Sequence record: OM386653.1
DNA: 64,000 nt
Direction: 5' to 3' (one strand)
DNA from: Escherichia phage vB_EcoM_ESCO8
Shown one piece after another: positions 9,168 through 49,002 of this stretch. The translations under genes and the position numbers were made by a program. The first letter of the stretch is position 1. Each line of letters starts with the position of its first letter. A model generated the notes under the pieces. It ran no database searches. It was not told the origin of the DNA and worked only from the letters and a program-made list of their open reading frames with translations.

Positions 9168-9178
9168 TTTTCATAACG

Positions 9179-9208: not shown

Positions 9209-9224
9209 GACATTTTTTAGGTGT

Positions 9225-9310: not shown

Positions 9311-9341
9311 ATATAGGAGATGCATAGCACCTCCTTTTAAA

Positions 9342-9417: not shown

Positions 9418-9424
9418 TTGAATA

Positions 9425-9691: not shown

Positions 9692-9746
9692 AGTTTTCTC
9701 CTTTTGTTTAACTTGTGCTTATCTTAGCAAATAACTAGCTATGTTG

Positions 9747-9857
9747 TCAACTAGTTTTTACAATATTTTTTCTTGATCTGTAACCTAGTGTATAACCACA
9801 TACAAAAGATACAATAGCAATAAAAACAGATAAGCCAAAAATAATTTCTGTAGACAT
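9747..9857 (-). CDS. Small membrane protein (36 aa, one TM helix)
   Basis: Hand translation MSTEIIFGLSVFIAIVSFVCGYTLGYRSRKNIVKTS; AAGGA RBS. Confidence 0.35.
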   Translation of the reverse strand: MSTEIIFGLSVFIAIVSFVCGYTLGYRSRKNIVKTS

Positions 9858-9870
9858 ACTGTTTCCTTAA

Positions 9871-10092
9871 TTATGTGAAATCTAATTCCTCCTCTGGTGC
9901 TGTGTAATTTAGAAGAAGATCAGTTACACTTTGATGTTGATAAACCCTTTCGGGACTGTCGTCGAATGCCAAACTTGTACAAATCGAGCATAGATCCGAC
10001 TCTTGAATATTACCATTCCTGTCTCTACGGGAATGATTAGTCAAGTGTCTGTTACAGGCTCGGCAACGAAAATAAAAATTATGTTGTTTCAT
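9871..10092 (-). CDS. Small zinc-ribbon-like protein (CxxC...CxxC)
   Basis: ORF track; Cys pairs; GAAGGA RBS. Confidence 0.5.
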   Translation of the reverse strand: MKQHNFYFRCRACNRHLTNHSRRDRNGNIQESDLCSICTSLAFDDSPERVYQHQSVTDLLLNYTAPEEELDFT

Positions 10093-10163
10093 AAATCCTT
10101 CGTGAAGCCCATCCAGGGCAGTTGCAGGCTCTCCTTACCTTAATCTTATCACGAAGTTTTTAT

Positions 10164-11897: not shown

Positions 11898-11968
11898 AGT
11901 TATGTCTCCTTGTTTGTTAGTGTGGGAGTATCTTACTAAGCATACTCCCTATTGTCAACACTTATTAT

Positions 11969-15394: not shown

Positions 15395-15757
15395 TTGATG
15401 TGCGCTACTAATCAACATGATATTTGTTACCAACCTCTTACTTGGATTGGTGAGGATCACTATGCTCAACGTGTTATAGTATGCGCTGCGAATAAGTATA
15501 TTCTTAACAATGGCGAAGAGTTAATTATTCCTTGTGTTAGGCATGCAAATCCTGTACTATCTGCACAACTTAATGTTTTAAAAGATGCAGGATTGATCGA
15601 TAAACTGTTTTGCTTACCTGATAATCAAGGGTTTATTGATCAGTATTATAACTGGTGGAGTCGCAAAGATGCTTATATCATTGCAGATAACGCCAAACAA
15701 ATTAACTACGAAAGAAATGGTCACAACAGTGAACTATTCAGCGAGGGATTATACTAA
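15395..15757 (+). CDS. Hypothetical protein
   Basis: ORF track; RBS present. Confidence 0.5.
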   Translation: MMCATNQHDICYQPLTWIGEDHYAQRVIVCAANKYILNNGEELIIPCVRHANPVLSAQLNVLKDAGLIDKLFCLPDNQGFIDQYYNWWSRKDAYIIADNAKQINYERNGHNSELFSEGLY

Positions 15758-16308
15758 TGTTTATTACAAGTGATTTGCATTTTATGCACAAACGTATCCG
15801 AGAGTTTGCTCCTGAATATCGCCCGTGGGAAGATATGGAGCATATGACAGAAGCACTGATCGAAGCATGGAATAAATGTGCCACAACACCAGGAGTAAAG
15901 ATGTACCATCTTGGGGACTTCTGTTTCGGGACTGAAGAAGATACCCGTAAGATTGCTTCCCGTCTCCAAGGAGATATTACTTACTGTGTTGGGAACCATG
16001 ATTACAGTAAACACAGAAAAGTGCTTGCAGAGTATGGAGAAGTGGTTTATTATGACGAAGTGAAATATCAGAAGCTGTTTTTCGTCTTAAGCCATTACCC
16101 TATGGCTGCCTGGAATAAACAAGGGCATGGATCAATCATGCTACACGGACACTCTCACGGATCATTCCCTGATCATTTGTATGGGAAAATGTTGGATGTT
16201 GGTTGGGACGCACACGGGAAAATCTTGCATTTTGACGAAATCATCTCTATTATGGATAAGCGTGATATTGTTGTTGTAGATCATCATAAGATAATCAAAG
16301 GAGATTAA
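15757..16308 (+). CDS. Calcineurin-like metallophosphoesterase
   Basis: Motifs DLHFMH, GDFCFG, GNHD, HGHSH. Confidence 0.7.
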   Translation: MFITSDLHFMHKRIREFAPEYRPWEDMEHMTEALIEAWNKCATTPGVKMYHLGDFCFGTEEDTRKIASRLQGDITYCVGNHDYSKHRKVLAEYGEVVYYDEVKYQKLFFVLSHYPMAAWNKQGHGSIMLHGHSHGSFPDHLYGKMLDVGWDAHGKILHFDEIISIMDKRDIVVVDHHKIIKGD

Positions 16309-16309
16309 G

Positions 16310-17242
16310 GTGGCTAAGTTCAATTGTGATGACCTGATTGCAAAAGGTTTAGTGCATAAAAAAGAAGTTAAATCTGGAGAGTATGCTGGTCTTGCTGTAC
16401 TTAAATACAAAAACAATGTATTCTGGGATAACTTGTGGAACGTTGACAAACGACTTCTAGATTGTCGTGGGTTGGTTGTTGACTCAGAAGACAATGTTGT
16501 TATTTGGCCTTTTACTAAAATCTTTAATCGTTTTGAGAATGGTACAGATCTTCCAGCAGACCAACTTGTAGATGCTGTCCGTAAAGTAAACGGTTTTATG
16601 GCATCTGTAGGTGTGTACAAAGGGAAACTTGTTGTATCAACAACAGGGAGCCTAGAATCAGATTTTGCAATTATGGCAAAGAACCGTATTGTTTCCGAGT
16701 GTGACGACATAGAGTATTTCATTAAGTGGACAGAAAGTGCAAAAGCAACTTTTCTTTTTGAAATCTGTGATCCTTCTGATCCACATATTGTCGAAGAAGA
16801 ACCAGGCGCATACTTAATTGGAGCAAGAATTCAAAATCTTGATGGGACAAGTTTCATGTTACCTGAAGGTGTTCTTGATGGGATTGCATCTGTTACAAAG
16901 TTTAAACGTCCTGAAGTTTATCCGATGATTAAATTTTCAGATGTTGTTGAAATGTCTAAACATTGTAGACACGAAGGCTTTGTTGTTCGTGAAACAAACT
17001 ACCCGTTTAACTTACTCTTAAAGATTAAGTCACCATACTATCTTGCTAAGAAGTTCCTTATGCGTGGTGGCAATAAGAAGTGGGATATGATTTGGGACAA
17101 CCCAAAAAATGCTAAAGAAATTGTTGACGAAGAATATTATACTTTGCTAGAATGGCTTCGAAATAATTTTACGAAGGTTCAGTGGGCTGCTCTAGATCCA
17201 CAAGAGCGACGTAAAGAAATAGAAAACTTCTTTGGAGGCTAA
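16310..17242 (+). CDS. RNA-ligase-like nucleotidyltransferase (GTG start)
   Basis: KxNG motif (RKVNGF); position between phosphoesterase and kinase. Confidence 0.55.
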   Translation: MAKFNCDDLIAKGLVHKKEVKSGEYAGLAVLKYKNNVFWDNLWNVDKRLLDCRGLVVDSEDNVVIWPFTKIFNRFENGTDLPADQLVDAVRKVNGFMASVGVYKGKLVVSTTGSLESDFAIMAKNRIVSECDDIEYFIKWTESAKATFLFEICDPSDPHIVEEEPGAYLIGARIQNLDGTSFMLPEGVLDGIASVTKFKRPEVYPMIKFSDVVEMSKHCRHEGFVVRETNYPFNLLLKIKSPYYLAKKFLMRGGNKKWDMIWDNPKNAKEIVDEEYYTLLEWLRNNFTKVQWAALDPQERRKEIENFFGG

Positions 17243-17647
17243 ATGAAACAACTTATCATTTTACGTGGTGTTTCAGGCGCAGGTAAATCTACAGTAGCAG
17301 AAATTATTTCTGAAGGTTATTGGCCTATCTGTGAGGCAGATCAATATCATTACACAGAAAACGGTGTTTACGATTGGAAGCCAGAAAATGTAGGTAAAGC
17401 ACACGCATGGTGTCAGAGTATTGTTCGTGATGCTATGGCATCTAATATTAAAAAGATTATTGTCTCTAACACTTCAACCACAGAGAAAGAACTTAAACCT
17501 TATTTTACTATTGCTGAAGAGTTTGGTTATCAAGTTATCTCTTTAGTTGTTGAAAATAGGCACGGTAACGACTCAATTCATGAGGTTCCACAACATATTC
17601 GTGATCAGCAAGAGAAACGTCTTCGCAGTTCACTTAAGCTACAATAA
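17243..17647 (+). CDS. P-loop polynucleotide-kinase-like protein
   Basis: Walker A GVSGAGKST near N-terminus; 134 aa. Confidence 0.65.
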   Translation: MKQLIILRGVSGAGKSTVAEIISEGYWPICEADQYHYTENGVYDWKPENVGKAHAWCQSIVRDAMASNIKKIIVSNTSTTEKELKPYFTIAEEFGYQVISLVVENRHGNDSIHEVPQHIRDQQEKRLRSSLKLQ

Positions 17648-18402: not shown

Positions 18403-19504
18403 TCCTACATTATATGGTAAAACTTCTACAGGTAAAATTAGACAGTGGTCAGTCTATACCGAAGGTAGTGTTGTAACTGTTGCTCATGGTCAATTAGGTG
18501 GAAAGATCACTAGCAAATCTTATACGGCAGAACCTAAAAATATTGGTCGCTCAAATGAAACAACAGCAGAAGAACAAGCTGAAATAGAAGCTCTTGCCAA
18601 ATGGACAAAGCAAATTAAGAATGGGTATTATAAAACAAAAGAGGAAGCTGAAAACCATGTTCCTTCTACACCCATGAAATGTCAGGATTATAAAGATTAT
18701 GCTGATCGTGTTTTGTTCCCAGGTTATGCACAATATAAATTGAATGGTCTACGTTCAATGATTAACATGCAAGGTGAATGTTTATCTAAAGCTGGAGAGG
18801 TATATAAACTCCCACCTCACTGGGAAGAAATTCCAACCTTCATTAAAGAAGTAGTTGGTCATCCTCTTGACGGTGAAGTTTTTGCTGGTTTGGGTATCCT
18901 TAGCCTTCAACAAATTAATAGTGCGTGGAAAAAGCATAATGCTAACACTCCGCTTCTTAAATACTATGTATATGATGTTCCCGTGCCATCTGTACCATTT
19001 GAGAAGAGGGTTCAAGTTTTGGCTGCTCTCAAAGAAGTTGTTGAAGATAAAGGTTTAGATGAACTCATTTGTGTAGTACATACAGAGTACATTGAAAACC
19101 AAGAGCAGTTTGATGCTTTCTATGCAAAAGCTCTACGTGAGAAAGCGGAAGGTGTGGTGTATCGTAACGCACAAGGTGTTTACGAGTTTGATAAACGTTC
19201 TTATGATGTTATTAAACGTAAACCACGGCAGACGCTTGAAGTTAAAGTGGTAAGTGCAAAGCGTGATAAAAATGGTGACGGGGTATTGACAGGCGAGATG
19301 GAAAATGGTAAAGTAGTCGAATTCCTGATGCGTAAGGATTCAGATGAAACCATTAACTATCGTAAAGCAGAAAATGCCGAAATGTTAATTGGTAAATTTG
19401 TTGAGATTGAGTATGAAGAGTTTTCCGATGGTGGAATACCTACGAAACCAACAGGTGTCCGTTTACGGGAAATGGTGGAGGGAACATGGGAGCCAAGAGA
19501 GTAG
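18390..19504 (+). CDS. ATP-dependent DNA ligase (probable)
   Basis: Motif I KLNGLR; ~370 aa; start at ATG after GAGGT RBS. Confidence 0.6.
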
Positions 19505-20115
19505 ACCTTGTAGGTAAGAAATGCGGTTGTTATACTGTCTTAGAAGAGATTGAAAGGGACAAACATGGCAAAAGACGTTTTACTTGTTCTTGTGATTGTG
19601 GTAATATTTGCACGGTAACTATGGAAACACTTAGGAAGAGTAGAAGTTCTTATTGTTCCAAGTGTAGACCGAAAACAACACAAACAGGAGCATACAAATC
19701 GTGGGAAGCTATGTTAGGGAGATGCTATAACAAAAACAATACTCACTTTGAATACTACGGTGGTCGTGGTATTAAGGTTTGTGATGCTTGGAGAAATTCA
19801 TTCTCTGCATTCTTTGAGGATATGGGAGATAGACCTAAAGGTTTATCTCTTGACAGAATAGACTCGGAAAAAGATTACAGTAAAGAAAATTGTCGCTGGG
19901 CTACAAGGTCTGTCCAGTCATACAATACACGAAAACAGAAAAATAACACTTCTGGTAAAACAGGTGTTGTGTGGAGCGAGAAAGAAAAAAGATGGATTGC
20001 TCGTATATCCTATCAAGGAAAAGATATCCGTCTTGGAGCATTTATTGATATTGAAGATGCTATATCAGCAAGACAGGAAGCTGAAGTATTGTATTTTGGT
20101 AAGATTAAAACATAA
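19486..20115 (+). CDS. AP2-domain/zinc-finger endonuclease-like protein (possible homing endonuclease)
   Basis: N-terminal Cys cluster; C-terminal AP2-like VVWSEKEKRWIARISYQGKDIRLGAF. Confidence 0.55.
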   Translation: MGAKRVDLVGKKCGCYTVLEEIERDKHGKRRFTCSCDCGNICTVTMETLRKSRSSYCSKCRPKTTQTGAYKSWEAMLGRCYNKNNTHFEYYGGRGIKVCDAWRNSFSAFFEDMGDRPKGLSLDRIDSEKDYSKENCRWATRSVQSYNTRKQKNNTSGKTGVVWSEKEKRWIARISYQGKDIRLGAFIDIEDAISARQEAEVLYFGKIKT

Positions 20116-20126
20116 AGGAGGTTGCA

Positions 20127-20318
20127 ATGAACATTGAAGTTATTTTGATTCTTGTGTTGCTTTCTCTTGTTGCTTGTGGTATAATTTTCGCATCAACTTT
20201 CCCTCACCCAACATGGTGGCAGAAGGTTAGTCTGATGATTGTCTACGGTGCAGCAGGTGTACAAATGGGTGCAGTTGTTGTATATCTGGTGGAATTTACA
20301 AAACAATATTTTAAATAA
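20127..20318 (+). CDS. Small membrane protein (2 TM)
   Basis: ORF track; hydrophobic helices. Confidence 0.5.
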   Translation: MNIEVILILVLLSLVACGIIFASTFPHPTWWQKVSLMIVYGAAGVQMGAVVVYLVEFTKQYFK

Positions 20319-20327
20319 GGAGAAACA

Positions 20328-21050
20328 ATGATTGAGAATTTTTTTAAACAAGTAAAAGTGGACAATAGCTTCTTTATCAAAGCTGCCGATCAAATTGTTG
20401 CTTGGAATGCTAAGGCACGTGGTGGAGTAACTCCAGAATTTACTCAAGAGATGTTTGAAGCTCAACTTTCTTTTGTACGCGAAGAACTAAAAGAGTTTCA
20501 AGCAGCAGCACAGGAAAATGATCACGTTGAATTACTTGATGCAGCAGCAGATATTTTTGTGGTAGCCTCCTACCTGGCGTTTATGTTCTTTGGTAAAGAA
20601 GGTGTTGATAAAGCTCTGGAAATGCCAACAGGAGATGTTCTGGCAGAGAACATTTACGATGTTATCATTGAATTTGATAAAATGGTAGAAAATGACTTGC
20701 AATTTGCCTTAATGTCTCTTACACTTACCCGTATGGCACGAGATACTTTGGTGCGTTCTGTTTATAACGAGAAGAAGGTTATGCGTGAAGTGTTGAATAG
20801 CAATGAGTCCAAGTATCCTACCAAGAAGCAACTCCTGGCTATTTGGGAAACTAAGGATATTATTGAAGCTCTTGAAAAAGAGTGCGATGCTATCGAGATG
20901 CGAAGCAAAGATCGTGCAGAAGGTTCTTATACTGGGGTACATGCTGTATATAACGAAGTTCAAAAGGTGTACGTATTCTTTGATGACAAAGGTAAAATTA
21001 TGAAACCATCTACCTTTGTTAAACCTAATATCGCAGCAATCATTGCTTAA
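20328..21050 (+). CDS. MazG-like nucleoside triphosphate pyrophosphohydrolase (possible dNTPase)
   Basis: All-alpha acidic motifs (EELKEF, ELLDAAADI). Confidence 0.5.
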   Translation: MIENFFKQVKVDNSFFIKAADQIVAWNAKARGGVTPEFTQEMFEAQLSFVREELKEFQAAAQENDHVELLDAAADIFVVASYLAFMFFGKEGVDKALEMPTGDVLAENIYDVIIEFDKMVENDLQFALMSLTLTRMARDTLVRSVYNEKKVMREVLNSNESKYPTKKQLLAIWETKDIIEALEKECDAIEMRSKDRAEGSYTGVHAVYNEVQKVYVFFDDKGKIMKPSTFVKPNIAAIIA

Positions 21051-25862: not shown

Positions 25863-26426
25863 ATGGCTAAACTTTATTTCCGATATAGTCCGATGAACAG
25901 TGGTAAAAGCACACATCTGCTACAAACAGCTTGGAACTATAAAGAAAGAAATATGAAAGTTCTTCTTTTAACTTCAGCTTTAGATACCAGATCTGGTTGT
26001 GCTATTGCTTCTAGGATAGGTATTAAAGAGGAAGCAAAACCAGTTAAAACAAAAGAAGATATGCTGGAAATTTATACACAACTTAAAGAAAATCCAGTCG
26101 ATGCAGTATTTGTGGACGAATCACAATTCCTAACTAAAGATATGGTTGACATTCTTGGAGATGTGGTAGATAATTACGATATTCCTGTATTCTGTTATGG
26201 GCTTAAAACAGATTTTGCTACAGAATTGTTTGAAGGTTCTGAACGGTTATTAGCCATAGCAGATTCAATTACAGAATTGAAAAGCATTTGTAAATGTGGA
26301 AGAAAAGCTATTTTCAATGCTAGACTTATCGACTCTAAAGAACAGATTGTTATTGGAGGAGAAGACATTTACGAAACAATGTGTAGAAAATGTTATAACA
26401 GGAGAAATAATGCGTCTAGTATGTGA
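25863..26426 (+). CDS. tdk: Thymidine kinase
   Basis: P-loop SPMNSGKST; C-terminal CxxC zinc motifs; 187 aa. Confidence 0.8.
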   Translation: MAKLYFRYSPMNSGKSTHLLQTAWNYKERNMKVLLLTSALDTRSGCAIASRIGIKEEAKPVKTKEDMLEIYTQLKENPVDAVFVDESQFLTKDMVDILGDVVDNYDIPVFCYGLKTDFATELFEGSERLLAIADSITELKSICKCGRKAIFNARLIDSKEQIVIGGEDIYETMCRKCYNRRNNASSM

Positions 26427-27009: not shown

Positions 27010-27981
27010 ATGACAAACTCTATTTCAGCAAAAATTATTGCACACTCTCAAACATCTGAAGGTAAGGATATTGTTACCTTTGAACTTGAATATCCTCGAA
27101 TCATTCACTCTGAATTGATGACGCATCGTTTGTTTTCTCGTAATGCCGCATCAAGTCGAGCTATCCCTGTTAAAACTCTAATTGAAATGGTACGGCAATC
27201 TCCAGCACGTCCTTATCGTTTTGGTGCTAACCAACCAGGTATGCAAGATAAAGGCACAGATCACGATGCCCTGATTGATGCAGGTTACACTGCAAAAGAA
27301 TGGTGGGACTTGGCTGCGCTAAGTGCTGCACGTTTTGCAGAAGAGTTTGCCCTTGCTGGTTATCATAAACAGGTTGCAAACCGCCTACTAGAACCATTCC
27401 AGCGTATGAAGACTGTAGTAACCACTACAGAGCTAGAAAACTTCTTGTGGTTGCGCGTAGATGCTGATGCAGATCCTACTATTGAGGCTCTTGCTAAAGA
27501 AATTAAAAAACTGTATGAATCTTCTGAACCATATCTTCTTTTCCCAGGGGAATGGCATACACCTTACGTTAATCGTGATCGAGATCCAGAAACTGGTATG
27601 ATCCGTTATTTCTTGGGTGAAACCTTCTCCAACGAGAAAATGTTGACAGAAGAGGAAGCAAAAGCTATTTCAGCTTCTTGTTGCGCTCAGGTAAGTTATC
27701 GTAAATTGAATGATACTAAAGATAAAGCATTGGATATCTATTCTCGTTTGCTGTCTGGACAAAAGGTACATGCATCTCCGTTTGAACACCAGGCAACGCC
27801 AATGAAAGAAATGGATTTGTCAGGATTAAAACAACAGAAAGGTGGTATTAATATTCCTCCGTTCCCTACTTCTTGGGAAGAAGGTATTACACATATGGAT
27901 CGTAAACATCGTTTGTGGAGTGGAAACTTCTGTGGTTGGATTCAACATCGTCAACTTTTGACTAACCATACAAAATGGTAA
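27010..27981 (+). CDS. thyX: Flavin-dependent thymidylate synthase
   Basis: ThyX signature HRxFSRNxxSSR. Confidence 0.75.
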   Translation: MTNSISAKIIAHSQTSEGKDIVTFELEYPRIIHSELMTHRLFSRNAASSRAIPVKTLIEMVRQSPARPYRFGANQPGMQDKGTDHDALIDAGYTAKEWWDLAALSAARFAEEFALAGYHKQVANRLLEPFQRMKTVVTTTELENFLWLRVDADADPTIEALAKEIKKLYESSEPYLLFPGEWHTPYVNRDRDPETGMIRYFLGETFSNEKMLTEEEAKAISASCCAQVSYRKLNDTKDKALDIYSRLLSGQKVHASPFEHQATPMKEMDLSGLKQQKGGINIPPFPTSWEEGITHMDRKHRLWSGNFCGWIQHRQLLTNHTKW

Positions 27982-31063: not shown

Positions 31064-31399
31064 ATGCCTACATTAGTTGTATTACCTGGAGCAACACCAC
31101 AAAGACGCTGGGGAAATTATACACTGGTAGATAGTAAAGATTTTACATTCGATTGGTGTTGTCATTATATTGCAGGTTTTCAATTTTCCAGTGTTGAAAT
31201 ATGGGCTTCCAATGATCCCGAAGCTACCTGGTATGCTTTAACCAGGGCAAGATATGAGGGAGAAGTTACTGTACTACTCACAAAGAGTGTATGGAACGCA
31301 TTAGAGAAGGCTTACATAGAGAATGGTATGGAGAGAGAACACATTGATACAATAAAAGCAATGTGTGATATTGTGGAGGATTTAAATGGCAGCAATTAA
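31064..31399 (+). CDS. Hypothetical protein between nrdA and nrdB
   Basis: ORF track 30989..31399 trimmed to ATG after AAGGAGG RBS. Confidence 0.45.
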   Translation: MPTLVVLPGATPQRRWGNYTLVDSKDFTFDWCCHYIAGFQFSSVEIWASNDPEATWYALTRARYEGEVTVLLTKSVWNALEKAYIENGMEREHIDTIKAMCDIVEDLNGSN

Positions 31400-32471
31400 T
31401 TTATACAACGACACTTACAAAGAAGGTTTCTACCCTGTATTTTTGGGAGAACAGTTAGGTATTTTTGATTCTATTAACGTAACATACCCAGAAATGCATC
31501 GTCTGTACAAACTACAAAAACAGCAAGATTGGGATGAAAACGAAGTAAACTTAGATCAGACACGAAAAGATTTCGTAGCTTGTTCTAAAAGCAACTATGA
31601 TGTTATGATCAAAAACCTATCTTTCCAATGGGAAAATGATTCACTTGCTAAATCAATCATCACTTTGTTTGCACCATTTTTAAGCAACAACGAAGCATGT
31701 GCAATGATGATGAAGCAATCAGAAATGGAAGTTTTACACGCTTTGACATATTCTGAAATTATTCGTCAGTGTATCCCTAATCCAAATGAAGTTATCGATC
31801 AGATCATGGAGAATGAAAGAATCTTCCAGAGGATGGGTATAGTTGAAGAGATAATGAGTGATCTGGCAGAGGCAGGACATAAATATGCTCTAGGTCTGAT
31901 TGAGAAGGATGATAACCTTCGTCTACTGATCCTGAAAGGAATGATTGCACTTATCGGTCTGGAAGGTATTCAGTTCATCTCCTCTTTTGCTGCAACATTT
32001 GCCTTAGCAGAGCAGCAATTGTTTGTAGGTGCAGCTAAACTCATTCAAAAAATTATGTTGGATGAACTATTGCACGTTAAAATGGATTATGCTATTATTG
32101 ATGCACTGCTGAAAGATCCTGTTTGGAGAAAAGTATACGAAGACAATATCGACGTTCTGACAGAAATTCTTGATACGGTAGTTGGACAAGAGGAAGATTG
32201 GTGTGACTATCTGTTTAGTGAAGGAAGGGTTATCGTTGGTGGTAACGCAGAGTTGTTCAAACTTTGGGTTTACTTCAATGCCGCGCCTATCTATCGCAGA
32301 CTGAAAATGAAACACAAATTCCGTGCACCGAAGAAAAGTCCACTGCCTTGGATGGATGTTTGGTTAAATCCAGATCAAATTCAAGCAGCAGCACAGGAGA
32401 TCCAAATTACAGCTTACAAACTGAATTCAGCAAATAAAGATGTAAGTGACGACGAGGAGTTAGATTTTTAA
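31386..32471 (+). CDS. nrdB: Ribonucleotide reductase class Ia small subunit
   Basis: 361 aa; Glu/His helix motifs typical of the di-iron site. Confidence 0.8.
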   Translation: MAAINLYNDTYKEGFYPVFLGEQLGIFDSINVTYPEMHRLYKLQKQQDWDENEVNLDQTRKDFVACSKSNYDVMIKNLSFQWENDSLAKSIITLFAPFLSNNEACAMMMKQSEMEVLHALTYSEIIRQCIPNPNEVIDQIMENERIFQRMGIVEEIMSDLAEAGHKYALGLIEKDDNLRLLILKGMIALIGLEGIQFISSFAATFALAEQQLFVGAAKLIQKIMLDELLHVKMDYAIIDALLKDPVWRKVYEDNIDVLTEILDTVVGQEEDWCDYLFSEGRVIVGGNAELFKLWVYFNAAPIYRRLKMKHKFRAPKKSPLPWMDVWLNPDQIQAAAQEIQITAYKLNSANKDVSDDEELDF

Positions 32472-33342: not shown

Positions 33343-33540
33343 ATGATGCTAGATCAACTGATCAATACTCCTCGCGTAACAGTAAGTCCAAAAACATTTG
33401 CATCACTTTTAGAAGATGCTAGAGAGGTTTATAACTTTACTGAAGAAGAGATTCCTGTTCCTGTTGAAAAAGGTTCCAGATGGTTGTTTTATGAAGGTAT
33501 TATTTTTACTGAAGGGAATAATTGGAAGGAGACTAAATGA
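33343..33540 (+). CDS. Hypothetical protein
   Basis: ORF track 33250..33540 trimmed to ATG after AGGAGG RBS. Confidence 0.4.
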   Translation: MMLDQLINTPRVTVSPKTFASLLEDAREVYNFTEEEIPVPVEKGSRWLFYEGIIFTEGNNWKETK

Positions 33541-34526
33541 AATACTTAGTAACAGGTGGTTTAGGCTTTATTGGAAGTGCAGTAGTTCGTTTCCTGGCTA
33601 AAAATACTAAGAATGATATTTACGTTATAGATAAATGGGGTTACGCTTCAGACCCTAGAAATTTATCAGAAACACCTAATGTAAAGTTTTGTCGTGTTGA
33701 CTTGACAAATGCGCAGTTAACTGCTAAGATTGTGGCAGATGTTAATCCAGATTATATAATGCATCTTGCAGCAGAGAGTCACGTAGATAATTCAATAGCA
33801 TCACCGAGTGTTTTTATAAATTCAAATATTGTTGGAACATTTAATCTTCTAGAGGCTGTTCGTTTAATGGGAGATAAATCAAATCTTAAAATGTTCCATC
33901 ATATTTCAACAGATGAAGTGTATGGTGATATGGAAGAAGGGGATTATCCGTTTACAGAACAGAATCCTTATAAACCAAGTAGTCCATATGCTGCATCTAA
34001 AGCTGCAAGCGATCATTTGGTAAGAGCATGGCATCGTACTTATGGTATTCCGACAGTTATAACAAATTGTTCAAATAATTTTGGAGCATATCATCATCCA
34101 GAAAAACTAATACCTAAAACGATAACAAATATCTTGATGCATAAACCAATCCCTGTTTATGGCAATGGTCTTCAAGTAAGAGATTGGTTATACGTTGACG
34201 ATCACGCAGAAGCATTACACCTAGTAGTAACTAAAGGCAAATCTGGAGAAACATATAATATTGGGAGCAGAAACCCTAGAACTAATATTGATGTAATCTA
34301 TATGATTTGTGATTATATGGATGCGGTGTATCCATCTGAAACAGATGCTTGTAGCCTCATTGAAATGGTTACAGATAGACCTGGACATGATTTAAGATAC
34401 GAAGTGAATCCTTATAAGATTGAAAAGGAATTAGGGTGGAAAGCTAAAGGCATATTTGAAGAAAAACTTTATTCAACCATTGATTGGTATGTAGATAACA
34501 AAGAGTGGTGGGAAAATAAAGTTTAA
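33537..34526 (+). CDS. rfbB: dTDP-glucose 4,6-dehydratase
   Basis: N-terminal TGGLGFIGS Rossmann motif; 329 aa. Confidence 0.75.
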
Positions 34527-34534
34527 GGAGGAGT

Positions 34535-35404
34535 ATGAAAGGTATTATCTTAGCAGGTGGTAGTGGAACAAGACTTTACCCAGTTACTAAAGGGGTTAGT
34601 AAACAACTATTACCAATTTATGATAAGCCTATGATTTATTATCCACTCTCTGTCCTAATGCTTTCTGGAATTAGGGAAATACTAATAATTACAACACCAG
34701 AAGATCAAATTAATTTTGTAAATCTTCTAGGTGATGGTTCTTCTTTTGGTATTTCCCTACAGTATGCAATACAGGATAGCCCAAGAGGTTTAGCAGAAGC
34801 GTTTATTATTGGTGAGAACTTTATTGGTGAAGATTCTGTAGCACTTGTGCTAGGTGATAATTTATTCTTTGGTCAGAGTTTTGGTAGCATTTTAGATTCT
34901 GCTAAAGAACATATTGAAAAGAATGGTGGAGCTAATATTTTTGGGTATCACGTAAATGATCCTGAAAGATTTGGTGTTGTTGAGTTTGATTCTGAAGGTA
35001 CAGTGGTGAGTATTGAAGAAAAACCAAAAGCACCAAAAAGCAACTATGCAATCACAGGCTTGTACTTTTACGATAATTCTGTTGTACAGAAAGCTAAAAG
35101 CGTTAAACCTTCTGCTAGAGGGGAGTTAGAGATTACAGATATAAATGAGATGTACTGGAAAGAAAAGGCTTTACGTGTCTGTAAACTAGGAAGAGGTTTC
35201 ACTTGGCTGGATACAGGAACACATGAAAGTCTTATGGAAGCATCTCAATTTGTTCATGCAATAGAAAAGCAACAAGGTATGAAGGTTGCATGCCTGGAAG
35301 AGATTGCTTTTAAAAATGAATGGATTACTTTAGACTCTGTAAAAAGTTCTGGAGAGGTTTTAAGTAAAACAGACTACGGTAAGTATTTACTTAAATTAAA
35401 ATAA
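34535..35404 (+). CDS. rfbA: Glucose-1-phosphate thymidylyltransferase
   Basis: N-terminal [14 protein letters not shown]. Confidence 0.8.
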
Positions 35405-35416
35405 AGGGGGAATTAA

Positions 35417-35971
35417 ATGATTCAAGCAACAAAAATCGAAGATTTGTTGATCATTCAACCTGACGTTTACGGAGATGAACGTGGTTTTTTCTTAGAAAGT
35501 TTTAATCAGGCTTTATATGATCAATACATAGGTAAACAAAACTTTGTCCAAGATAACCATTCACGTTCTATTCGAGGAGTTCTACGTGGGCTTCATTTTC
35601 AAAAGAAAAACCCACAAGGGAAGTTAGTACGTTGTGTTCGTGGTGAAGTTTATGATGTTGCTGTAGATATTAGGGTTGGTAGTCCAACATTTGGAGAATG
35701 GGTAGGTGTTCTCTTATCTGAAAAGAATAAAACACAATTTTGGATTCCTCCTGGTTTCGCTCATGGCTTTGTTGTGATTAGTGACATTGCTGATTTTGAA
35801 TATAAATGTACAGAATATTACGATCCGACTTCAGAGTGTAGTCTTGCGTGGAATGATCCAGATATCAATATTGATTGGGGTTTTGATTTAATCTTTAATG
35901 ATATTAATTTTAAACCTATCTTGTCACAAAAAGATCAGCAAGCCAAAACACTAAAGGAGATCATATTTTGA
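35417..35971 (+). CDS. rfbC: dTDP-4-dehydrorhamnose 3,5-epimerase
   Basis: Cupin motifs; 184 aa. Confidence 0.7.
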   Translation: MIQATKIEDLLIIQPDVYGDERGFFLESFNQALYDQYIGKQNFVQDNHSRSIRGVLRGLHFQKKNPQGKLVRCVRGEVYDVAVDIRVGSPTFGEWVGVLLSEKNKTQFWIPPGFAHGFVVISDIADFEYKCTEYYDPTSECSLAWNDPDINIDWGFDLIFNDINFKPILSQKDQQAKTLKEIIF

Positions 35972-36798
35972 CAAAATTTTTAATCTTTGGTTCAAAAGGT
36001 CAATTAGGACAGTCTTTGGCAAAAGTTGCGCCCGAAGATGTTATTTTGATTGAAGCAAGTGATGTAGACATTACCAACTTTAAAGATGTTATGAATAGTC
36101 TTGTACAGCATGTGCCTGATGTTGTTGTGAATTGTGCGGCTTACACGGCAGTAGATAAAGCTGAAGAAGATGTTAACACCTGTATAAATGTTAATGCATA
36201 CGGTGCAACAAACATTGCCAAAGCATGTAATGATTTACTGATACAGTTTGTACATATTTCAACAGACTATGTTTTTGATGGGCATGTTGCTGGCACAGAA
36301 GATAGTAAAACAAACCCCTTGAACACCTACGGTTACAGTAAACAATTAGGTGAAACTTTAGTACAAACAGTTTGTCCTACAGCACTTATTATCAGAACAG
36401 CTTCTGTTTATAGTGAATTTGGACATAACTTTTTGAAAACTATGTTGGAACGCTACAACGGTGGTCAAAAAGAATTTAATGTAGTATGTGATCATTTGTC
36501 ATGTCCTACTTATGCACCTGATCTTGCAGAAACAATTTTTAAACTTGTAAAAGATGGTGTAAATAGTAAAGTTGTACACTATGCAGGTGCAGATTATATT
36601 TCTTGGTATGATTTTGCACGAAAGATATTTCTTGTTATAGATTTATCTGTTACAGTTAATCCTGTATCTGCTTCAACCTATAATTCCAAAGCAGTCAGAC
36701 CAGCAACATCTTATTTAAAAACAGATCCTACTTTAAATCCGCGAAGTGTTGATAGCGGTATTGTAAGAACTTTAACTATACTTTTAAACAAGGAGTGA
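35968..36798 (+). CDS. rfbD: dTDP-4-dehydrorhamnose reductase
   Basis: N-terminal IFGSKGQLG Rossmann motif; 276 aa; follows rfbC. Confidence 0.7.
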   Translation: MTKFLIFGSKGQLGQSLAKVAPEDVILIEASDVDITNFKDVMNSLVQHVPDVVVNCAAYTAVDKAEEDVNTCINVNAYGATNIAKACNDLLIQFVHISTDYVFDGHVAGTEDSKTNPLNTYGYSKQLGETLVQTVCPTALIIRTASVYSEFGHNFLKTMLERYNGGQKEFNVVCDHLSCPTYAPDLAETIFKLVKDGVNSKVVHYAGADYISWYDFARKIFLVIDLSVTVNPVSASTYNSKAVRPATSYLKTDPTLNPRSVDSGIVRTLTILLNKE

Positions 36799-37061
36799 AA
36801 ATGAATTTTATTATCTACGGTAAACCAAATTGTCCTTTCTGCACTAACGCTAAGATTCTACTAGAACAGCGTGAACAGGATTTTAAATATCTTACCTTAG
36901 ATGAAGACTATTCTTTAGATCAGATTCAGAATCTGGTTTTAGAGAAAACAGGTGTTCTACCACGCACATTTCCTCAGATTTTTGTGGAAGATGGTGAACA
37001 GCTAACCCACGTAGGAGGTTTTTCTGAACTACGTGAATTCATGGCTCAGATTGCGGAGTAA
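36795..37061 (+). CDS. Glutaredoxin-like protein
   Basis: CPFC active site near N-terminus. Confidence 0.7.
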   Translation: MKMNFIIYGKPNCPFCTNAKILLEQREQDFKYLTLDEDYSLDQIQNLVLEKTGVLPRTFPQIFVEDGEQLTHVGGFSELREFMAQIAE

Positions 37062-38549: not shown

Positions 38550-39044
38550 ATGACGCTAATTGAGATTGATCGCAATGGTATTGATGAATGCTATCAAGCT
38601 GGCTTAGTTAAGCCGAATGAGTTTAGACAGATTTATATTGACAAGATTGAAAAAGAAATATCTCTTCGTTTAGAGAACATGACAACTTTGCAAAAAGTTC
38701 AGATGTTTTTTAGTTGGTTAAAAGGCGAGGATTGGCTAACTAAATATTACCAGGAATTATCTGATAGTCAAGAAGGCTTGTTTGAGTGTATAATAAATAT
38801 AGCTGGGTCTAATTCAGAATTACTCCTGATTGATGAAGAAGATTCTAAACTTCTTTTTCTTAGCAGTATCTTTCACAAGAAATCTATGTTAGTAAGAAAT
38901 TGCAGTGATTTACTAAATCATCCACTAACAAGAACTAATAAAATTCTTGTGGATAAAGAAACACTAAGAGCTATTGATTACCTCCGTAAATATGTAAGCG
39001 GTGGTAAAGCAGTCCTTAAAACACTACAGGAGGAAGTACAATGA
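38550..39044 (+). CDS. Hypothetical protein
   Basis: ORF track. Confidence 0.45.
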   Translation: MTLIEIDRNGIDECYQAGLVKPNEFRQIYIDKIEKEISLRLENMTTLQKVQMFFSWLKGEDWLTKYYQELSDSQEGLFECIINIAGSNSELLLIDEEDSKLLFLSSIFHKKSMLVRNCSDLLNHPLTRTNKILVDKETLRAIDYLRKYVSGGKAVLKTLQEEVQ

Positions 39045-39694
39045 CAACAATTATTGCAACACGTAACAAAATTCTGTCTGACGGTAAAGTAACAGTAGGT
39101 AGTCGTGTAGACACTTTAAATTTCAAGAAAGTGCGTAAAATTGGGGATTACCTTGTTGGTGGTGCAGGACGTCTGTCTTCTATCTTGACTTTCTTTTCTT
39201 GGTTCGAACAAAACTTACAATGCCAAGCAGCACAAGAGACAATCCCAGGTTTGGTGATCCAGTCAGATCCTGATAAAGAAGATGAAGAGTTTGTGGCATT
39301 GGTTGTTCACCCAGACGGTAAAATTTATATGCACGAGGGTAATAATCCAACACGAGCATATCCTTTAACTGAAGATTATTATGCTGTTGGTAGTGGGGCA
39401 GATTTTGCTTTAGCAGCTTTAGATGCAGGGGCAACTCCAGAAGAAGCGATGGAAGTTGCAAAACTACGAGATGCTTTTTCCGGTGGTGAAACTTTTGTCG
39501 AAGAGATCGAAGAACAACTGGAGCTAACAGCGGAAGATATTCTGAACTTCAGCAAGGAGCAACTAATTAGTATGCTGTTGACTGGTGATCCTGATAGTGA
39601 TGAAGCTGAAAGTATTTTAGCAGAAATGAAAGAATCACAAGAAAAAGTATTGACAGTCTCTGAAAAACTTGATAAAGTGTCCTCTGATAATTAA
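39041..39694 (+). CDS. HslV-like N-terminal-nucleophile peptidase with acidic C-terminal extension
   Basis: MTTIIA (Thr at position 2) and HslV-like block KKVRKIGDYLVGGAGR. Confidence 0.55.
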   Translation: MTTIIATRNKILSDGKVTVGSRVDTLNFKKVRKIGDYLVGGAGRLSSILTFFSWFEQNLQCQAAQETIPGLVIQSDPDKEDEEFVALVVHPDGKIYMHEGNNPTRAYPLTEDYYAVGSGADFALAALDAGATPEEAMEVAKLRDAFSGGETFVEEIEEQLELTAEDILNFSKEQLISMLLTGDPDSDEAESILAEMKESQEKVLTVSEKLDKVSSDN

Positions 39695-39736: not shown

Positions 39737-40165
39737 ATGTTACCAGTACCTGTAACCTTTGTAGAAAAAGCCTACTACTCTTTAGAACAAAACTGTAAAA
39801 GAGCTAAAAATTTTATTGAAAGTTTAGCAGAACAGCGTTACACTGTATCTAAAAAGGGATGGTTCAGAACTTCACAATATTTAGTCAACCCTTTCGGAGA
39901 AGTTCGTGTGTTGTATGGCAACACAGAAAATATCTTAGAAAGAATGTTAGAACTAGATAGGATCTCCTCCTGTGATTATCAACTGTTGAAATTTTACGAT
40001 GTGTCAGAAAGCGTTAAAAACTTTCTTGACGACTTATGTAAACGAAAAACAGAAGAAGATACAATACCAGTATCTATGGAAGAATTAACATTCTTAAGAG
40101 ATATTATGGTTTTTGAAGAAGACCCTGAAATCACAAAAGAGGAGATTTTAAGTAGTGGCAAATAA
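39737..40165 (+). CDS. Hypothetical protein
   Basis: ORF track; GGAGG RBS. Confidence 0.5.
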   Translation: MLPVPVTFVEKAYYSLEQNCKRAKNFIESLAEQRYTVSKKGWFRTSQYLVNPFGEVRVLYGNTENILERMLELDRISSCDYQLLKFYDVSESVKNFLDDLCKRKTEEDTIPVSMEELTFLRDIMVFEEDPEITKEEILSSGK

Positions 40166-40664
40166 GTATGATCGTCCACCAACTGATTACTATCCTACTC
40201 CACAAAAATGTATAAATGCATTATTTAGTGTAATAGATTTTAATAACCTTAAAGAAGAAGGTTTTATTTTTGCAGAACCGTGTAAAGGCGCTGCTGCTGC
40301 AATTTATCAACATTTTCCAGAAGGATCAGAATATTGTGAGTTAGAAGAAGGGAAAGATTATTTTAACCACGAATGGCATACTAAGCCGGATATTATAATC
40401 ACAAATCCCCCATTCAAACTTGCACTTGAGTTCTTGCAAAAGAGCTTAAAAGAAGCAGACGTTTGCATATACTTGTTGCGTCTTGGGTTCCTAGAGTCTA
40501 TTAAACGAAGGGAATTCCATAAACAGAATCCACCAACAAACTTGATTGTTCTTTCTGAACGACCATCTTTTGTTGCAGGTGGTACTGATAAGACAGCATA
40601 TGCTTGGTACGTCTACGACCCAAAAAACAGGCTGGGTTTAACTCAACCTTTCTATTTTGTTTAA
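40155..40664 (+). CDS. Small N6-adenine DNA methyltransferase (probable)
   Basis: Catalytic motif IITNPPF; ~169 aa. Confidence 0.55.
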   Translation: MANKYDRPPTDYYPTPQKCINALFSVIDFNNLKEEGFIFAEPCKGAAAAIYQHFPEGSEYCELEEGKDYFNHEWHTKPDIIITNPPFKLALEFLQKSLKEADVCIYLLRLGFLESIKRREFHKQNPPTNLIVLSERPSFVAGGTDKTAYAWYVYDPKNRLGLTQPFYFV

Positions 40665-41168: not shown

Positions 41169-41831
41169 ATGAAGTTTGTACTGTATCATCGACTTTCTAA
41201 GAAGAAACAACAAGGCAACCAGTATGGTATAGAATCACAGGAAGCAGATATTCAACGCTTCCTGGATTCACAAGAAAATTATACTATTGTAGGTAGCTTT
41301 GCAGAGTTTTATTCGGGTAAAGGCGATTGGAAGCAACGTAGAGAGCTTGTAAAAGCTGTTAATCTTTGTAAAGAAACAGGTGCTACACTTGTTGTTGCTA
41401 AGGTTGACCGTCTTGGACGTAACACAGCCTCTGTTGCAACCTTATTAGAGATGATTAATGTACGAATAGCAACTATGCCCTCCGCTGAAAATATGATAAT
41501 AAATATTTTAGCAGTTCTGGCAGAAGAAGAGGCTCGTGCAATATCTGATCGTGTTAAGAAGAGCCTTAAGGTAGCAAAAGCGAAGGGAACGCTTCTTGGT
41601 GCAGCAAACCCTAAATACAAAAGAACAGATTATACGAAAACGGAAGAAGCAAAACGCTCAAAAGAGTTTGCGCTTTCTTTAAAAGATTCTTTAGTTGCAT
41701 ACAGAGCTTGTAAAACGCCATATATGACGATTGCAAAGCATCTGAATGAATCAGGAAAGAGAACTATTCGTGGGAGTTTGTTCGATGCCAAAGCGGTACA
41801 ACGTCTTTGTGCAAAATTGAATATTAAATAA
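41169..41831 (+). CDS. Small serine recombinase (resolvase/invertase family)
   Basis: N-terminal YHRLS; VAKVDRLGRN motif; 220 aa. Confidence 0.6.
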   Translation: MKFVLYHRLSKKKQQGNQYGIESQEADIQRFLDSQENYTIVGSFAEFYSGKGDWKQRRELVKAVNLCKETGATLVVAKVDRLGRNTASVATLLEMINVRIATMPSAENMIINILAVLAEEEARAISDRVKKSLKVAKAKGTLLGAANPKYKRTDYTKTEEAKRSKEFALSLKDSLVAYRACKTPYMTIAKHLNESGKRTIRGSLFDAKAVQRLCAKLNIK

Positions 41832-42055: not shown

Positions 42056-42628
42056 ATGCGTTTAGCTTTTAACGGGAAGATAAGCACAGCAAACATATTA
42101 TCAGCCATAGGATTATTAGGTAAAAAATTCACACCTTTCAGTTTACCTGTTTGTGTAGATTTTGATCATGTATTTGATATTAATAATCCTTCACGTTGTA
42201 TCGCCAGAAGTAATATTGATAACCCAAGTGAAAATCTGTTTTATATTACTAAACCATCCCAGGCAATTTTGAATCAATGGGAAGCAGGTCTGATTAAACC
42301 AGGTAAATATTTTGCATTACTACCTTGTAAATCATTGGCTATAGAGGACAGTCTAAACTATGCAAACAATCTTGTTGTTACAGCATTCATTGTCTCAGAA
42401 AAAGAAGAAACTGCGGCACTTGCAAACACTGTTAAATCTTTGTATGATGCTTTGGGTGTTACTTACACTACCTTCGTTTGTGAAGATATTCCACATTGCG
42501 TTGAATTCGTGGTGAATGGTGTAACTGTATGTCGTGTAGAAACAACTCAAGACGAAGACGTTTTTATTACTGTAGCCGATGTAATATCTGAACCTGTGTT
42601 TAGCTACGCAGTTTCATTAACACATTAA
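42056..42628 (+). CDS. Hypothetical protein
   Basis: ORF track. Confidence 0.45.
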   Translation: MRLAFNGKISTANILSAIGLLGKKFTPFSLPVCVDFDHVFDINNPSRCIARSNIDNPSENLFYITKPSQAILNQWEAGLIKPGKYFALLPCKSLAIEDSLNYANNLVVTAFIVSEKEETAALANTVKSLYDALGVTYTTFVCEDIPHCVEFVVNGVTVCRVETTQDEDVFITVADVISEPVFSYAVSLTH

Positions 42629-45871: not shown

Positions 45872-46861
45872 ATGAAAGTTTTAAGTCTTTTTGATGGTAT
45901 GTCAGGAGGAATGCTTGCGCTAAAAAGTGCAGGTATTGAAGTAGATACATATTACGCTTCAGAATTAGACAAATTTGCCGTAGCTGAAAGCCAAGCAAAT
46001 TTTCCAGATATTATTCAGTTAGGTGATGTTACAAAATGGAGAGAATGGGATATCCCGTGGGGAGAAATTGATCTTTTGTTAGGTGGTAGTCCGTGTCAAG
46101 GCTTCTCTTCTTCTGGTAAGGGTTTGAACTTTCAAGATCCGCGATCTAAGCTATTCTTCGAATATGTTGAAATTCTTGAACATATTAAAAAGTTTAATCC
46201 TAATGTTAAGTTCATGCTTGAAAACGTTAAGATGAAAGCGGAGTGGGAAAACGTGATCACAAGTTACTTAGGTGTTGATCCCGTATTCATTAACTCCGCA
46301 GATTTCACGGCACAGAATAGACAACGTTTATACTGGTGCAACTGGGAAATAAAACCCTGGGAGATTACCAATGAAGTGTTGCAAGATATCATTGAAGATG
46401 ATAGTATTGTAGACAGAGATAAGGCTTATTGCATAGATGCAAATTATGCCAAAGGTGGTAATATAGAACAGTATTTTGAAAAGAGTCGCAGACAACTGGT
46501 TTTTTATCCGGCAGCAATATATGGGCGTAGAATTAATGAAAATGGCAAACGTAGTACATCTAAAACTGATCGTTTGGTACATTGTTTGGAAGTTCAGGAC
46601 AGTGGAAAAACTCGTTGCCTCACAACTGTGCCTAAAGACGTACTATTAGCTTATATTCCACCTGGAAGATATCTAGATGCCTTTGAAAAATTAAGTGAAG
46701 GCGTACATTATAGAAAGTTAACGGTTAAAGAGTGTTGCCGCTTGCAAGGTGTGCCAGATGACTACTTTAAAGTGAGTAGTAACACACAAGCATATAAGAT
46801 GTTAGGCAATGGTTGGACTATACCTGTCATTGCACATATTCTTAAATGTATGGAGGAATAA
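45872..46861 (+). CDS. DNA (cytosine-5)-methyltransferase
   Basis: Motif I FDGMSGG, motif IV GGSPCQGFS, motif VI ENV. Confidence 0.75.
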   Translation: MKVLSLFDGMSGGMLALKSAGIEVDTYYASELDKFAVAESQANFPDIIQLGDVTKWREWDIPWGEIDLLLGGSPCQGFSSSGKGLNFQDPRSKLFFEYVEILEHIKKFNPNVKFMLENVKMKAEWENVITSYLGVDPVFINSADFTAQNRQRLYWCNWEIKPWEITNEVLQDIIEDDSIVDRDKAYCIDANYAKGGNIEQYFEKSRRQLVFYPAAIYGRRINENGKRSTSKTDRLVHCLEVQDSGKTRCLTTVPKDVLLAYIPPGRYLDAFEKLSEGVHYRKLTVKECCRLQGVPDDYFKVSSNTQAYKMLGNGWTIPVIAHILKCMEE

Positions 46862-48189: not shown

Positions 48190-49002
48190 ATGCGAAGAGT
48201 AATTTTTGTTAGTGGCGCAGGTTTAAGTGCAGACAGTGGGATTCGAACGTTCCGAACAGACACAGATAGTGGTCGTGCCTTATGGGAAGAATATGACTTA
48301 GAAGAGGTCTGCGATATTGGAGCTTTCCAAGCAGGTTATCGTGTGAGAACATCTCCAGATCTTCCAGTGGTCGGTGGTGTAGACGAGAACGGTATGGACT
48401 TGTATGCCAAAACACACGAATTTTATAACAAAAGACGTGTTGAGCTTAAAGATGTACAACCTAATGCTGCACATATTCAAATAGCAAAGTGGTTTAAGGA
48501 ATATCCTAACCAAGTAGTAAACTTGACAACAAACGTCGATGATCTACTAGAGCGAGCAGGTGTGGACAGGGATTCTGTTATTCACGTGCACGGGTATCTC
48601 CCTGAAGTAGTTTACCGTATGCATCCTGGAGATTACAAAACACTGGTAGACATTGGTTACAATAGTATAAACATAGATGATTATAACTGGGTGAAGCCTA
48701 ATGTTGTATTTTTTGGTGAGGCTGCACCTTTGTATGCAGATATGGCTCACTTGTTTGATACTTTGACCATGCAAGATTTGGTTGTTGTAGTAGGATGTTC
48801 AAACCAAGTTATCAATTTTAATTGGGAATTATTCCCTGCACTTAATATGGGTACAAAAATGATTGTTGTTAACCCAGGAATTAATTACGAAGAAACTCTT
48901 CTTTACGAAGATAGAGGAGTCTTTGTTTACAGAGAAAAGGCAGCAGATGCTTTTAGCAATCCTGCTTTCATAAAAATGATAGAAGATCATTTGACTAAGT
49001 AA
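48190..49002 (+). CDS. Sir2-family (sirtuin-like) NAD-dependent protein, no zinc ribbon
   Basis: Motifs GAGLSADSGIRTFR, TTNVDDL, HVHG. Confidence 0.65.
   Translation: MRRVIFVSGAGLSADSGIRTFRTDTDSGRALWEEYDLEEVCDIGAFQAGYRVRTSPDLPVVGGVDENGMDLYAKTHEFYNKRRVELKDVQPNAAHIQIAKWFKEYPNQVVNLTTNVDDLLERAGVDRDSVIHVHGYLPEVVYRMHPGDYKTLVDIGYNSINIDDYNWVKPNVVFFGEAAPLYADMAHLFDTLTMQDLVVVVGCSNQVINFNWELFPALNMGTKMIVVNPGINYEETLLYEDRGVFVYREKAADAFSNPAFIKMIEDHLTK

Follow-up and report, generated by a model that had tools for sequence, protein, structure and literature searches.

What does a strictly lytic coliphage with a very broad host range do with an activated deoxysugar? Escherichia phage vB_EcoM_ESCO8 (hereafter ESCO8; sequence record OM386653.1) poses this question, as a 64,000-nucleotide stretch of its DNA (the window in what follows) carries rmlBACD, a set of four genes for making dTDP-L-rhamnose. 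An earlier reading made from the letters and open reading frames (ORFs) of this stretch, the sequence-only reading, recognised the set and named DNA, virion proteins and host surface polymers as possible acceptors of the sugar. DNA glycosylation, the answer guessed at in print, is at odds with the published restriction sensitivity of these phages. The answer we tentatively prefer is that rmlBACD provides a host-independent supply of dTDP-L-rhamnose to glycosyltransferases of the phage itself, and that these may glycosylate a phage protein, probably one of the virion.

The four genes are, by homology, bona fide RmlB, RmlA, RmlC and RmlD, and none is a pseudogene. ORF calls reproduce the four consecutive plus-strand genes of the sequence-only reading (33537-36798; Table 1), and each product scores above the curated bit cut-off of its NCBIfam equivalog model: RmlB for TIGR01181 (439.2 bits against a cut-off of 365.1, E 8e-132, residues 2-327 of 329), RmlA for the short-form model TIGR01207 (473.2 against 360.65, E 2e-142), RmlC for TIGR01221 (260.4 against 155.75, E 7e-78, its sole family match), and RmlD for TIGR01214 (254.1 against 224.05, E 1e-75). 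Pfam is concordant for all four, and all align with solved Rml enzymes over essentially their whole length. For the first three, these are the Salmonella enterica enzymes 1g1a (RmlB, E 8e-116, residues 1-327), 1iim (RmlA, E 5e-125) and 1dzr (RmlC, E 6e-64), while the best solved relatives of RmlD are those of Bacillus anthracis and Clostridium (E 4e-44, 3sc6). RmlD is the most divergent of the four enzymes, at 30 bits above its cut-off.

Catalytic motifs are kept throughout. RmlB has GLGFIG at residue 8 (the GxGxxG NAD site), TDEVYG at 125 (Thr-Asp-Glu) and YAASK at 151 (YxxxK), all aligned with the motifs of S. enterica RmlB, and RmlA has GGSGTRL (the GGxGTRL signature), KQLLP, LGDN, EKP and DTGT. 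In RmlC, the His of GLHFQ, the Lys of GKLVR and the Tyr of FEYK correspond to H63, K73 and Y133 of 1dzr, and the Asp of SQKD is present in the sequence, at a position outside the displayed 1dzr alignment. RmlD has GSKGQLG (GxxGxxG), STDYVF and YGYSK (YxxxK), the last two completing a Thr/Tyr/Lys triad. The sequence-only reading had worried that a gene might be a pseudogene or belong to another short-chain dehydrogenase/reductase or cupin family; equivalog scores, full-length alignments and intact motifs speak against both. Internal stops are absent, and a Shine-Dalgarno-like GGAG or AGGAGG precedes each gene. The pathway is complete, with four of four steps encoded by intact, co-directional genes, and is probably functional, converting glucose-1-phosphate and dTTP to dTDP-L-rhamnose.

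The word operon, also from the sequence-only reading, holds for these genes as a co-directional, overlapping set (they are 8-12 bases apart or overlap) but not as a separate transcription unit. They are embedded in a same-strand gene array of ~36 kb, and promoter and terminator scans around them gave counts at chance level, so that no transcription unit is definable. We use the word below in its first sense. The GC content at third codon positions is 20-23% in the rml genes.

The operon is real but already known: it is annotated in ~55 GenBank records and has been discussed since at least 2020. The window is, as supposed, phage DNA. It belongs to Justusliebigvirus (phi92-like myoviruses of the Stephanstirmvirinae), is colinear over its whole length with the genome of Escherichia phage inny, and is 99.9% identical to inny over the operon. 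There are 55 records with at least 95% identity to the operon region; nearly all are Justusliebigvirus, and Rml annotations are already given in them. Four records labelled "Campylobacter phage" (MG065639, MG065645, MG065656 and MG065689) are 98.7% identical to ESCO8 over the operon and are probably contaminants or mislabelled.

Olsen et al. (2020) discussed the operon and proposed glycosylation of hydroxymethylated nucleotides (PMC7552041). Plating assays by Maffei et al. (2021) then showed the phi92-like group to be "exceptionally susceptible" to restriction-modification, which the authors note is so "despite a putative dTDP glycosylation machinery" (PMC8594841), and a 2024 paper repeats this tension between glycosylation genes and restriction sensitivity (PMC10844046). 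Our literature search found no experimental identification of the sugar acceptor in these phages. What we add are the glycosyltransferases elsewhere in the same genome, a conserved three-gene cassette among them, its co-occurrence with rml, and its genomic contexts.

A single insertion between nrdB and grx brought rmlBACD into an ancestor of Justusliebigvirus and Phapecoctavirus, and the set has been retained. The insertion site is marked by Klebsiella phage KP13-16, a member of the Stephanstirmvirinae without rml, in which nrdB is followed directly by the grx homologue. To judge from sequence comparison, the operon has long been part of the lineage and is maintained rather than freshly captured, because phAPEC8 has the identical gene order (nrdA, nrdB, small ORFs, rmlBACD, grx, lysozyme, PhoH) with Rml proteins only 54-71% identical, because RmlD falls into a phage-only clade, and because codon changes are mainly synonymous (32 synonymous and 12 non-synonymous relative to phage EmilieFrey, with no stops). 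Beyond the phage clade, RmlD identity drops to at most 46%, in cellular relatives that are Bacteroidota-like. At least 80% of the operon is kept in 53 of the 55 Justusliebigvirus records.

Independent acquisitions of rml by other phages find no support in our sample, as both of the other "phage" RmlD matches that we examined are host DNA. In OQ658368, rmlD lies outside the prophage, beyond attL, and CAKLQF020000003 ("Acinetobacter phage MD-2021a") is a chromosome-like contig with housekeeping genes. In the phage collection searched, genuine phage-borne rml operons therefore appear confined to the Stephanstirmvirinae.

Where, then, are the enzymes that would use the sugar? The sequence-only reading saw no glycosyltransferase near the operon, which is right for the window: neither its ORFs of at least 150 aa that lack a solid annotation nor the neighbours of the operon give a glycosyltransferase signal with Pfam or PHROGs. 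The acceptor problem is not, however, one of missing transferases, as the same genome encodes four adjacent ones outside the window. We used inny as a whole-genome stand-in and searched its translations with Pfam and PHROGs. At inny 91381-94557 (minus strand), ~72 kb from the operon and beside the primase/helicase and DNA polymerase genes, are a small glycosyltransferase-like protein, a GT-A enzyme and two GT-B paralogues that are 40.7% identical to each other. All four match PHROGs glycosyltransferase families (E 1e-79 to 1e-149), with weak Pfam GT-B or TAGT matches, and none has a membrane segment. BASEL records already label them "putative glycosyltransferase" and "putative disaccharide synthase". 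A Pfam scan of unannotated ORFs of at least 150 aa in the window and the non-structural part of the genome revealed no further glycosyltransferase.

Fold searches confirm the GT-B and GT-A folds, from which donor and acceptor are not assignable. Structural neighbours of the GT-B enzymes include PglJ, WlaC, PimA, WaaG, BshA and sucrose-phosphate synthase, the matches in BFVD are generic viral GT-A proteins, and a sequence search of solved structures with three of the transferase types gave no informative matches. Less than 2 kb from the transferases lies a tellurite-resistance-like (Ter-like) module (inny 96564-105905) with TerD, vWA-TerF, TelA, TerC, a macro domain, a ComF-like phosphoribosyltransferase and a HAD hydrolase, which is also conserved in KP13-16. 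Proteins with NADAR and CapR domains are encoded at inny 124221-125945.

We propose that rmlBACD would give the phage its own activated 6-deoxyhexose in any host, with RmlA, RmlB, RmlC and RmlD acting in that order, that the soluble transferases would consume the resulting dTDP-rhamnose, and that they would assemble a short glycan whose acceptor is a protein encoded by the phage, most probably one of the virion head or tail. The evidence for a protein target comes from relatives of the transferase genes. A GT4-like/GT-A/GT-B cassette keeps its gene order across unrelated phages: in a Pseudomonas prophage, it lies immediately 3' of the major capsid gene, and in a Serratia prophage, between the lysis genes and terminase. 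In a metagenomic phage, GT-B and GT-A genes directly precede those for terminase, portal and capsid, while the terminase gene of Streptomyces phage Zuko is preceded by genes for a nucleotide-sugar enzyme and a distant GT-B homologue. Bacteria offer a comparable context, as two Burkholderiaceae chromosomes have a GT-B homologue immediately behind the genes for an intimin/invasin-type adhesin and a conserved 555-aa protein. These capsid, terminase and adhesin contexts argue for a protein acceptor, which in phages would be the particle. Among the acceptors named by the sequence-only reading, we favour virion protein, and DNA has the least support, given the published restriction sensitivity and an ORF scan that found no enzyme to make a glycosylatable base.

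The two Burkholderiaceae loci deserve a note of their own. In Trinickia (4742-11026 of the retrieved locus) and Burkholderia (3025-8440), an inverse-autotransporter adhesin, a 555-571-aa unknown protein and a GT-B homologue (42-44% identical) stand together, and this three-gene arrangement may be an adhesin glycosylation system.

Losses within the lineage bear on the supply of the donor. Enterobacteria always make the RmlA/RmlB product (by RffH/RffG in E. coli) for the synthesis of enterobacterial common antigen (ECA), while only some E. coli O-serotypes carry rmlC and rmlD. Phapecoctavirus ESCO37 is without rmlA and rmlB (PMC10269720) and by tblastn retains rmlC and rmlD. This pattern is consistent with the donor-supply logic: the genes lost are those whose product every host provides, and the genes kept are those that a host has or lacks according to serotype.

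Several observations weigh against a virion acceptor fed by rml. First, the co-occurrence of rml and the transferases reflects one lineage and thus few independent events: tblastn of phage records found RmlD in 156 and GT-B in 145, but the bulk of the shared set is the same Stephanstirmvirinae genomes (~135, of which ~54 are at least 95% identical and ~80 more distant). Second, no transferase can be assigned to rhamnose, because KP13-16 has the three-gene cassette with no rml gene anywhere in its genome, and phi1_175008 has rml but, within the 11 kb examined at its cassette, no more than two of the four transferase genes; the cassette also occurs without rml in prophages. Third, that the transferases use dTDP-rhamnose is something we infer from gene content, and homology at ~40% identity does not tell whether RmlD makes rhamnose or 6-deoxy-L-talose. 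Fourth, our literature search found no report of a glycosylated virion protein in these phages. Finally, the transferases of this phage are encoded in the replication module and not among the structural genes, a position that would also suit a DNA-modifying role. We also considered the extra GT-B paralogue (GTB1) as the rhamnose-specific enzyme and rejected it, as the same 11 kb of rml-bearing phi1_175008 shows only GT4-like and GTB2-type genes.

Given these points, the more specific claim, that Stephanstirmvirinae coliphages attach a rhamnose-containing oligosaccharide to virion proteins of their own by means of a mobile three-gene cassette widespread in proteobacterial phages, is one that we regard as possible but doubtful.

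DNA glycosylation is a rival that we consider unlikely. It holds that dTDP-rhamnose is transferred onto a modified base and shields phage DNA from host nucleases, as in T-even phages and RB69. The location of the operon among nucleotide-metabolism genes and of the transferases beside primase and DNA polymerase would fit, as would the phage's C5-cytosine methyltransferase. The GT-A enzyme also has a match to a TET-associated glycosyltransferase family, which is sub-threshold (24.1 bits against a gathering cut-off of 27.5), and a PHROGs match to T-even hydroxymethylcytosine glucosyltransferase (E 4e-5). Some phages do hypermodify their DNA with a nucleotide sugar that they make themselves (PMC13326640), and DNA was the earlier published guess (PMC7552041). 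However, every characterised pathway requires an enzyme that makes a glycosylatable base (PMC13326640), and Pfam found neither a ThyA-family hydroxymethylase/hydroxylase nor a TET/JBP dioxygenase in the ORFs scanned for glycosyltransferases, a scan that took in neither smaller or very divergent proteins nor the structural module. For thymidylate synthase, the phage has a ThyX-type enzyme. A ThyX-family base hydroxylase can be rejected as a substitute, since the published hydroxylases are ThyA homologues (PMC13326640). Three of the four transferases are acidic (isoelectric points 5.2-5.6), homologues of the cassette belong to the head modules of temperate phages and, in bacteria, adjoin adhesin genes, and the restriction sensitivity of phi92-like phages (PMC8594841; echoed in PMC10844046) also speaks against DNA.

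The transferases might instead act on something other than the particle, e.g., a host protein (as EarP rhamnosylates an arginine of elongation factor P), a non-structural phage protein or a small molecule, a possibility that we rate slightly below DNA. They are soluble and lie in the early or middle gene block, close to the Ter-like metabolite module, and among the structural neighbours of GT-B are the small-molecule transferases BshA and sucrose-phosphate synthase. The phage also encodes other types of host-modifying enzyme, with Sir2, macro and NADAR domains. None of the top matches listed is of the EarP type, in sequence or in fold, and the cassette occurs in prophages that have no Ter module. 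Its place beside capsid and terminase genes in temperate phages again points to the virion.

Remodelling of the host envelope is less probable again. Here, a host glycolipid or polysaccharide such as the lipopolysaccharide (LPS) core, ECA or the NGR glycan receptor would be modified, or dTDP-4-keto-6-deoxyglucose drained, so as to block superinfection or the sticking of progeny to debris. ECA synthesis is generally known to share the RmlA/RmlB product, but rmlA and rmlB would raise, not drain, this intermediate. PglJ, WlaC, PimA and WaaG, among the closest structural neighbours of GT-B, include lipid-linked and LPS-core transferases, and the receptors of these phages are surface glycans (wecB-dependent NGR/ECA and LPS core glucose; PMC8594841; PMC11990801). 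The phage's transferases nevertheless lack membrane segments, and the Pfam scan found no flippase, polymerase or Gtr-type gene. Envelope turnover is, as a matter of general knowledge, slow within a lytic cycle. Phages of Pseudomonas, Serratia, Klebsiella and E. coli share the cassette although the envelope glycans of these hosts are not alike, and this favours an acceptor that is phage-borne or universal over a host-specific glycan.

Least likely, and in our view very improbable, is that the operon is a dispensable passenger (moron) without a specific phage function or that its end product is not L-rhamnose (e.g., dTDP-6-deoxy-L-talose made by a divergent 4-reductase): one viable Phapecoctavirus is missing rmlA and rmlB (PMC10269720), the related KP13-16 is entirely without the operon, and RmlD is both the closest to its cut-off and at most 46% identical to cellular homologues, but operon and motifs are retained across two genera at 54-71% identity with mainly synonymous substitutions, and RmlD is above its equivalog threshold and keeps the triad.

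If the sugar does go onto virion proteins, the particle would carry a glycan that is independent of host O-serotype, since the phage brings the whole donor pathway. This would matter for phage therapy, for which phi92-like phages are frequent candidates, as it bears on antibody recognition, stability and mucus binding of the particles. It would bear equally on phage engineering and on the spread of particle glycosylation outside actinobacteriophages and giant viruses. It would also be new on two counts: to our knowledge, no virion glycosylation system has been described for phages of Gram-negative hosts, and no phage is known to supply its own nucleotide sugar for virion glycosylation. The conserved three-gene transferase cassette offers a concrete experimental handle.

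The surroundings of the operon are given in Table 1. The sequence-only reading placed it in a nucleotide-metabolism block, and Pfam bears this out for tdk, thyX, the MazG-like gene and the C5-cytosine methyltransferase gene; nrdA and nrdB follow the annotation of the record, and the second methyltransferase depends on that annotation and an NPPF motif. Pfam also confirms a T4-type lysozyme and the Sir2 family member in the window. Between nrdB and rmlB are 4-5 small ORFs, which match only PHROGs families of unknown function.

Other features of the window are of separate interest. The NAPRTase-family gene and its pyrophosphokinase-like neighbour form a pair that resembles NARP1, a two-enzyme NAD+ reconstitution pathway by which phages counter NAD-depleting defence. 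A metallophosphoesterase, a T4 Rnl1-type RNA ligase and a P-loop kinase, labelled phosphoesterase, RNA ligase and polynucleotide kinase in the record, stand in a row and are a possible RNA-repair set. Directly 3' of the DNA ligase gene, ~852 bp that are absent from inny hold a Cys-rich ORF with no Pfam match, and this stretch looks like a mobile, homing-endonuclease-like insertion. The HslV/proteasome-like protein, the serine recombinase and the short histidyl-tRNA-synthetase-like protein are each unusual in a strictly lytic phage.

Table 1. Features of the ESCO8 window: the rml operon first, then other features by position (aa, amino acids).
Feature	Position	Strand	Basis or content
rmlB, dTDP-glucose 4,6-dehydratase, 329 aa	33537-34526	+	TIGR01181, S. 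enterica 1g1a alignment, motifs
rmlA, glucose-1-phosphate thymidylyltransferase, 289 aa	34535-35404	+	TIGR01207, S. enterica 1iim alignment, motifs
rmlC, dTDP-4-dehydrorhamnose 3,5-epimerase, 184 aa	35417-35971	+	TIGR01221, S. enterica 1dzr alignment, motifs
rmlD, dTDP-4-dehydrorhamnose reductase, 276 aa, TTG start overlapping rmlC stop	35968-36798	+	TIGR01214, motifs
Cluster of 16 tRNA genes	6630-9417	-	includes 3 tRNA-Met, 2 tRNA-Leu, 2 tRNA-Ser
NAPRTase-family protein, 577 aa	10164-11897	-	129 bits
Ribose-phosphate-pyrophosphokinase-like protein, 297 aa, adjoining the former (pair 10164-12862)	11969-12862	-	
Metallophosphoesterase, RNA ligase, P-loop kinase	15757-17647	+	
Stretch absent from inny	19450-20301		
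Cys-rich ORF, 209 aa	19486-20115		
MazG-like protein	20328-21050		Pfam PRA-PH, 27 bits
tdk	25863-26426		Pfam TK, 185 bits
thyX	27010-27981		Pfam Thy1, 36.9 bits
nrdB, conserved upstream anchor of insertion site	31386-32471	+	record annotation
grx (glutaredoxin), overlapping rmlD stop, conserved downstream neighbour	36795-37061	+	Pfam Glutaredoxin, 45 bits
HslV/proteasome-like protein	39041-39694	+	
Putative second methyltransferase	40155-40664		record annotation and NPPF motif; weak Pfam match
Serine recombinase	41169-41831	+	Resolvase N-terminal domain, 75 bits
Short histidyl-tRNA-synthetase-like protein	42056-42628	+	PHROGs
C5-cytosine methyltransferase	45872-46861		Pfam, 149 bits
Sir2-family gene	48190-49002		

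Known systems resemble that of ESCO8 in different respects. The rmlBDAC/rfbBDAC genes of the E. coli and S. enterica O-antigen clusters encode the same four enzymes with the same chemistry and conserved catalytic residues, whereas the phage operon has the order B-A-C-D, sits between nrdB and grx in a lytic phage, and has no adjacent glycosyltransferase, flippase or polymerase gene. Its RmlD is also not of the enterobacterial type, with solved relatives in Firmicutes and the closest non-phage relatives Bacteroidota-like (at most 46%). The nearest systems are the operons of phi92, inny and EmilieFrey/Bas61, which share 95-99.9% nucleotide identity within Justusliebigvirus, and that of phAPEC8, with its identical synteny; ESCO8 is one more isolate of the genus Justusliebigvirus.

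DNA-hypermodifying phages, namely RB69, DLP3 and HY126 (arabinosyl-5-hydroxycytosine) and T4 (glucosyl-hydroxymethylcytosine), combine a self-made nucleotide sugar with several glycosyltransferases (PMC13326640). In phage-encoded sugar activation and multiple transferases, they are like the coliphage, but they have a ThyA-family base-hydroxylating enzyme and restriction-resistant DNA, whereas the ORFs scanned in the coliphage yielded no such enzyme and its group is sensitive to restriction.

For the particle itself, there are two points of reference. Actinobacteriophages have virion glycosylation systems with glycosyltransferase genes next to capsid genes. These transferases are likewise phage-encoded and soluble, and phages of Streptomyces and Arthrobacter have distant homologues of the GT-B. 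The genes of Zuko and of the proteobacterial prophages lie in the head/packaging module, however, while those of the coliphage lie in the replication module, and the coliphage, whose virion glycan is putative, has a full donor-synthesis pathway as well. Giant viruses use nucleotide-sugar pathways (UDP-L-rhamnose in mimivirus, GDP-sugars in chloroviruses) for capsid or fibril glycans. Like the coliphage, they carry both nucleotide-sugar genes and transferases of their own, and their particles are glycosylated independently of the host. Their hosts are eukaryotic, their rhamnose route runs through UDP and their enzymes are different, so the likeness is one of function and not of homology.

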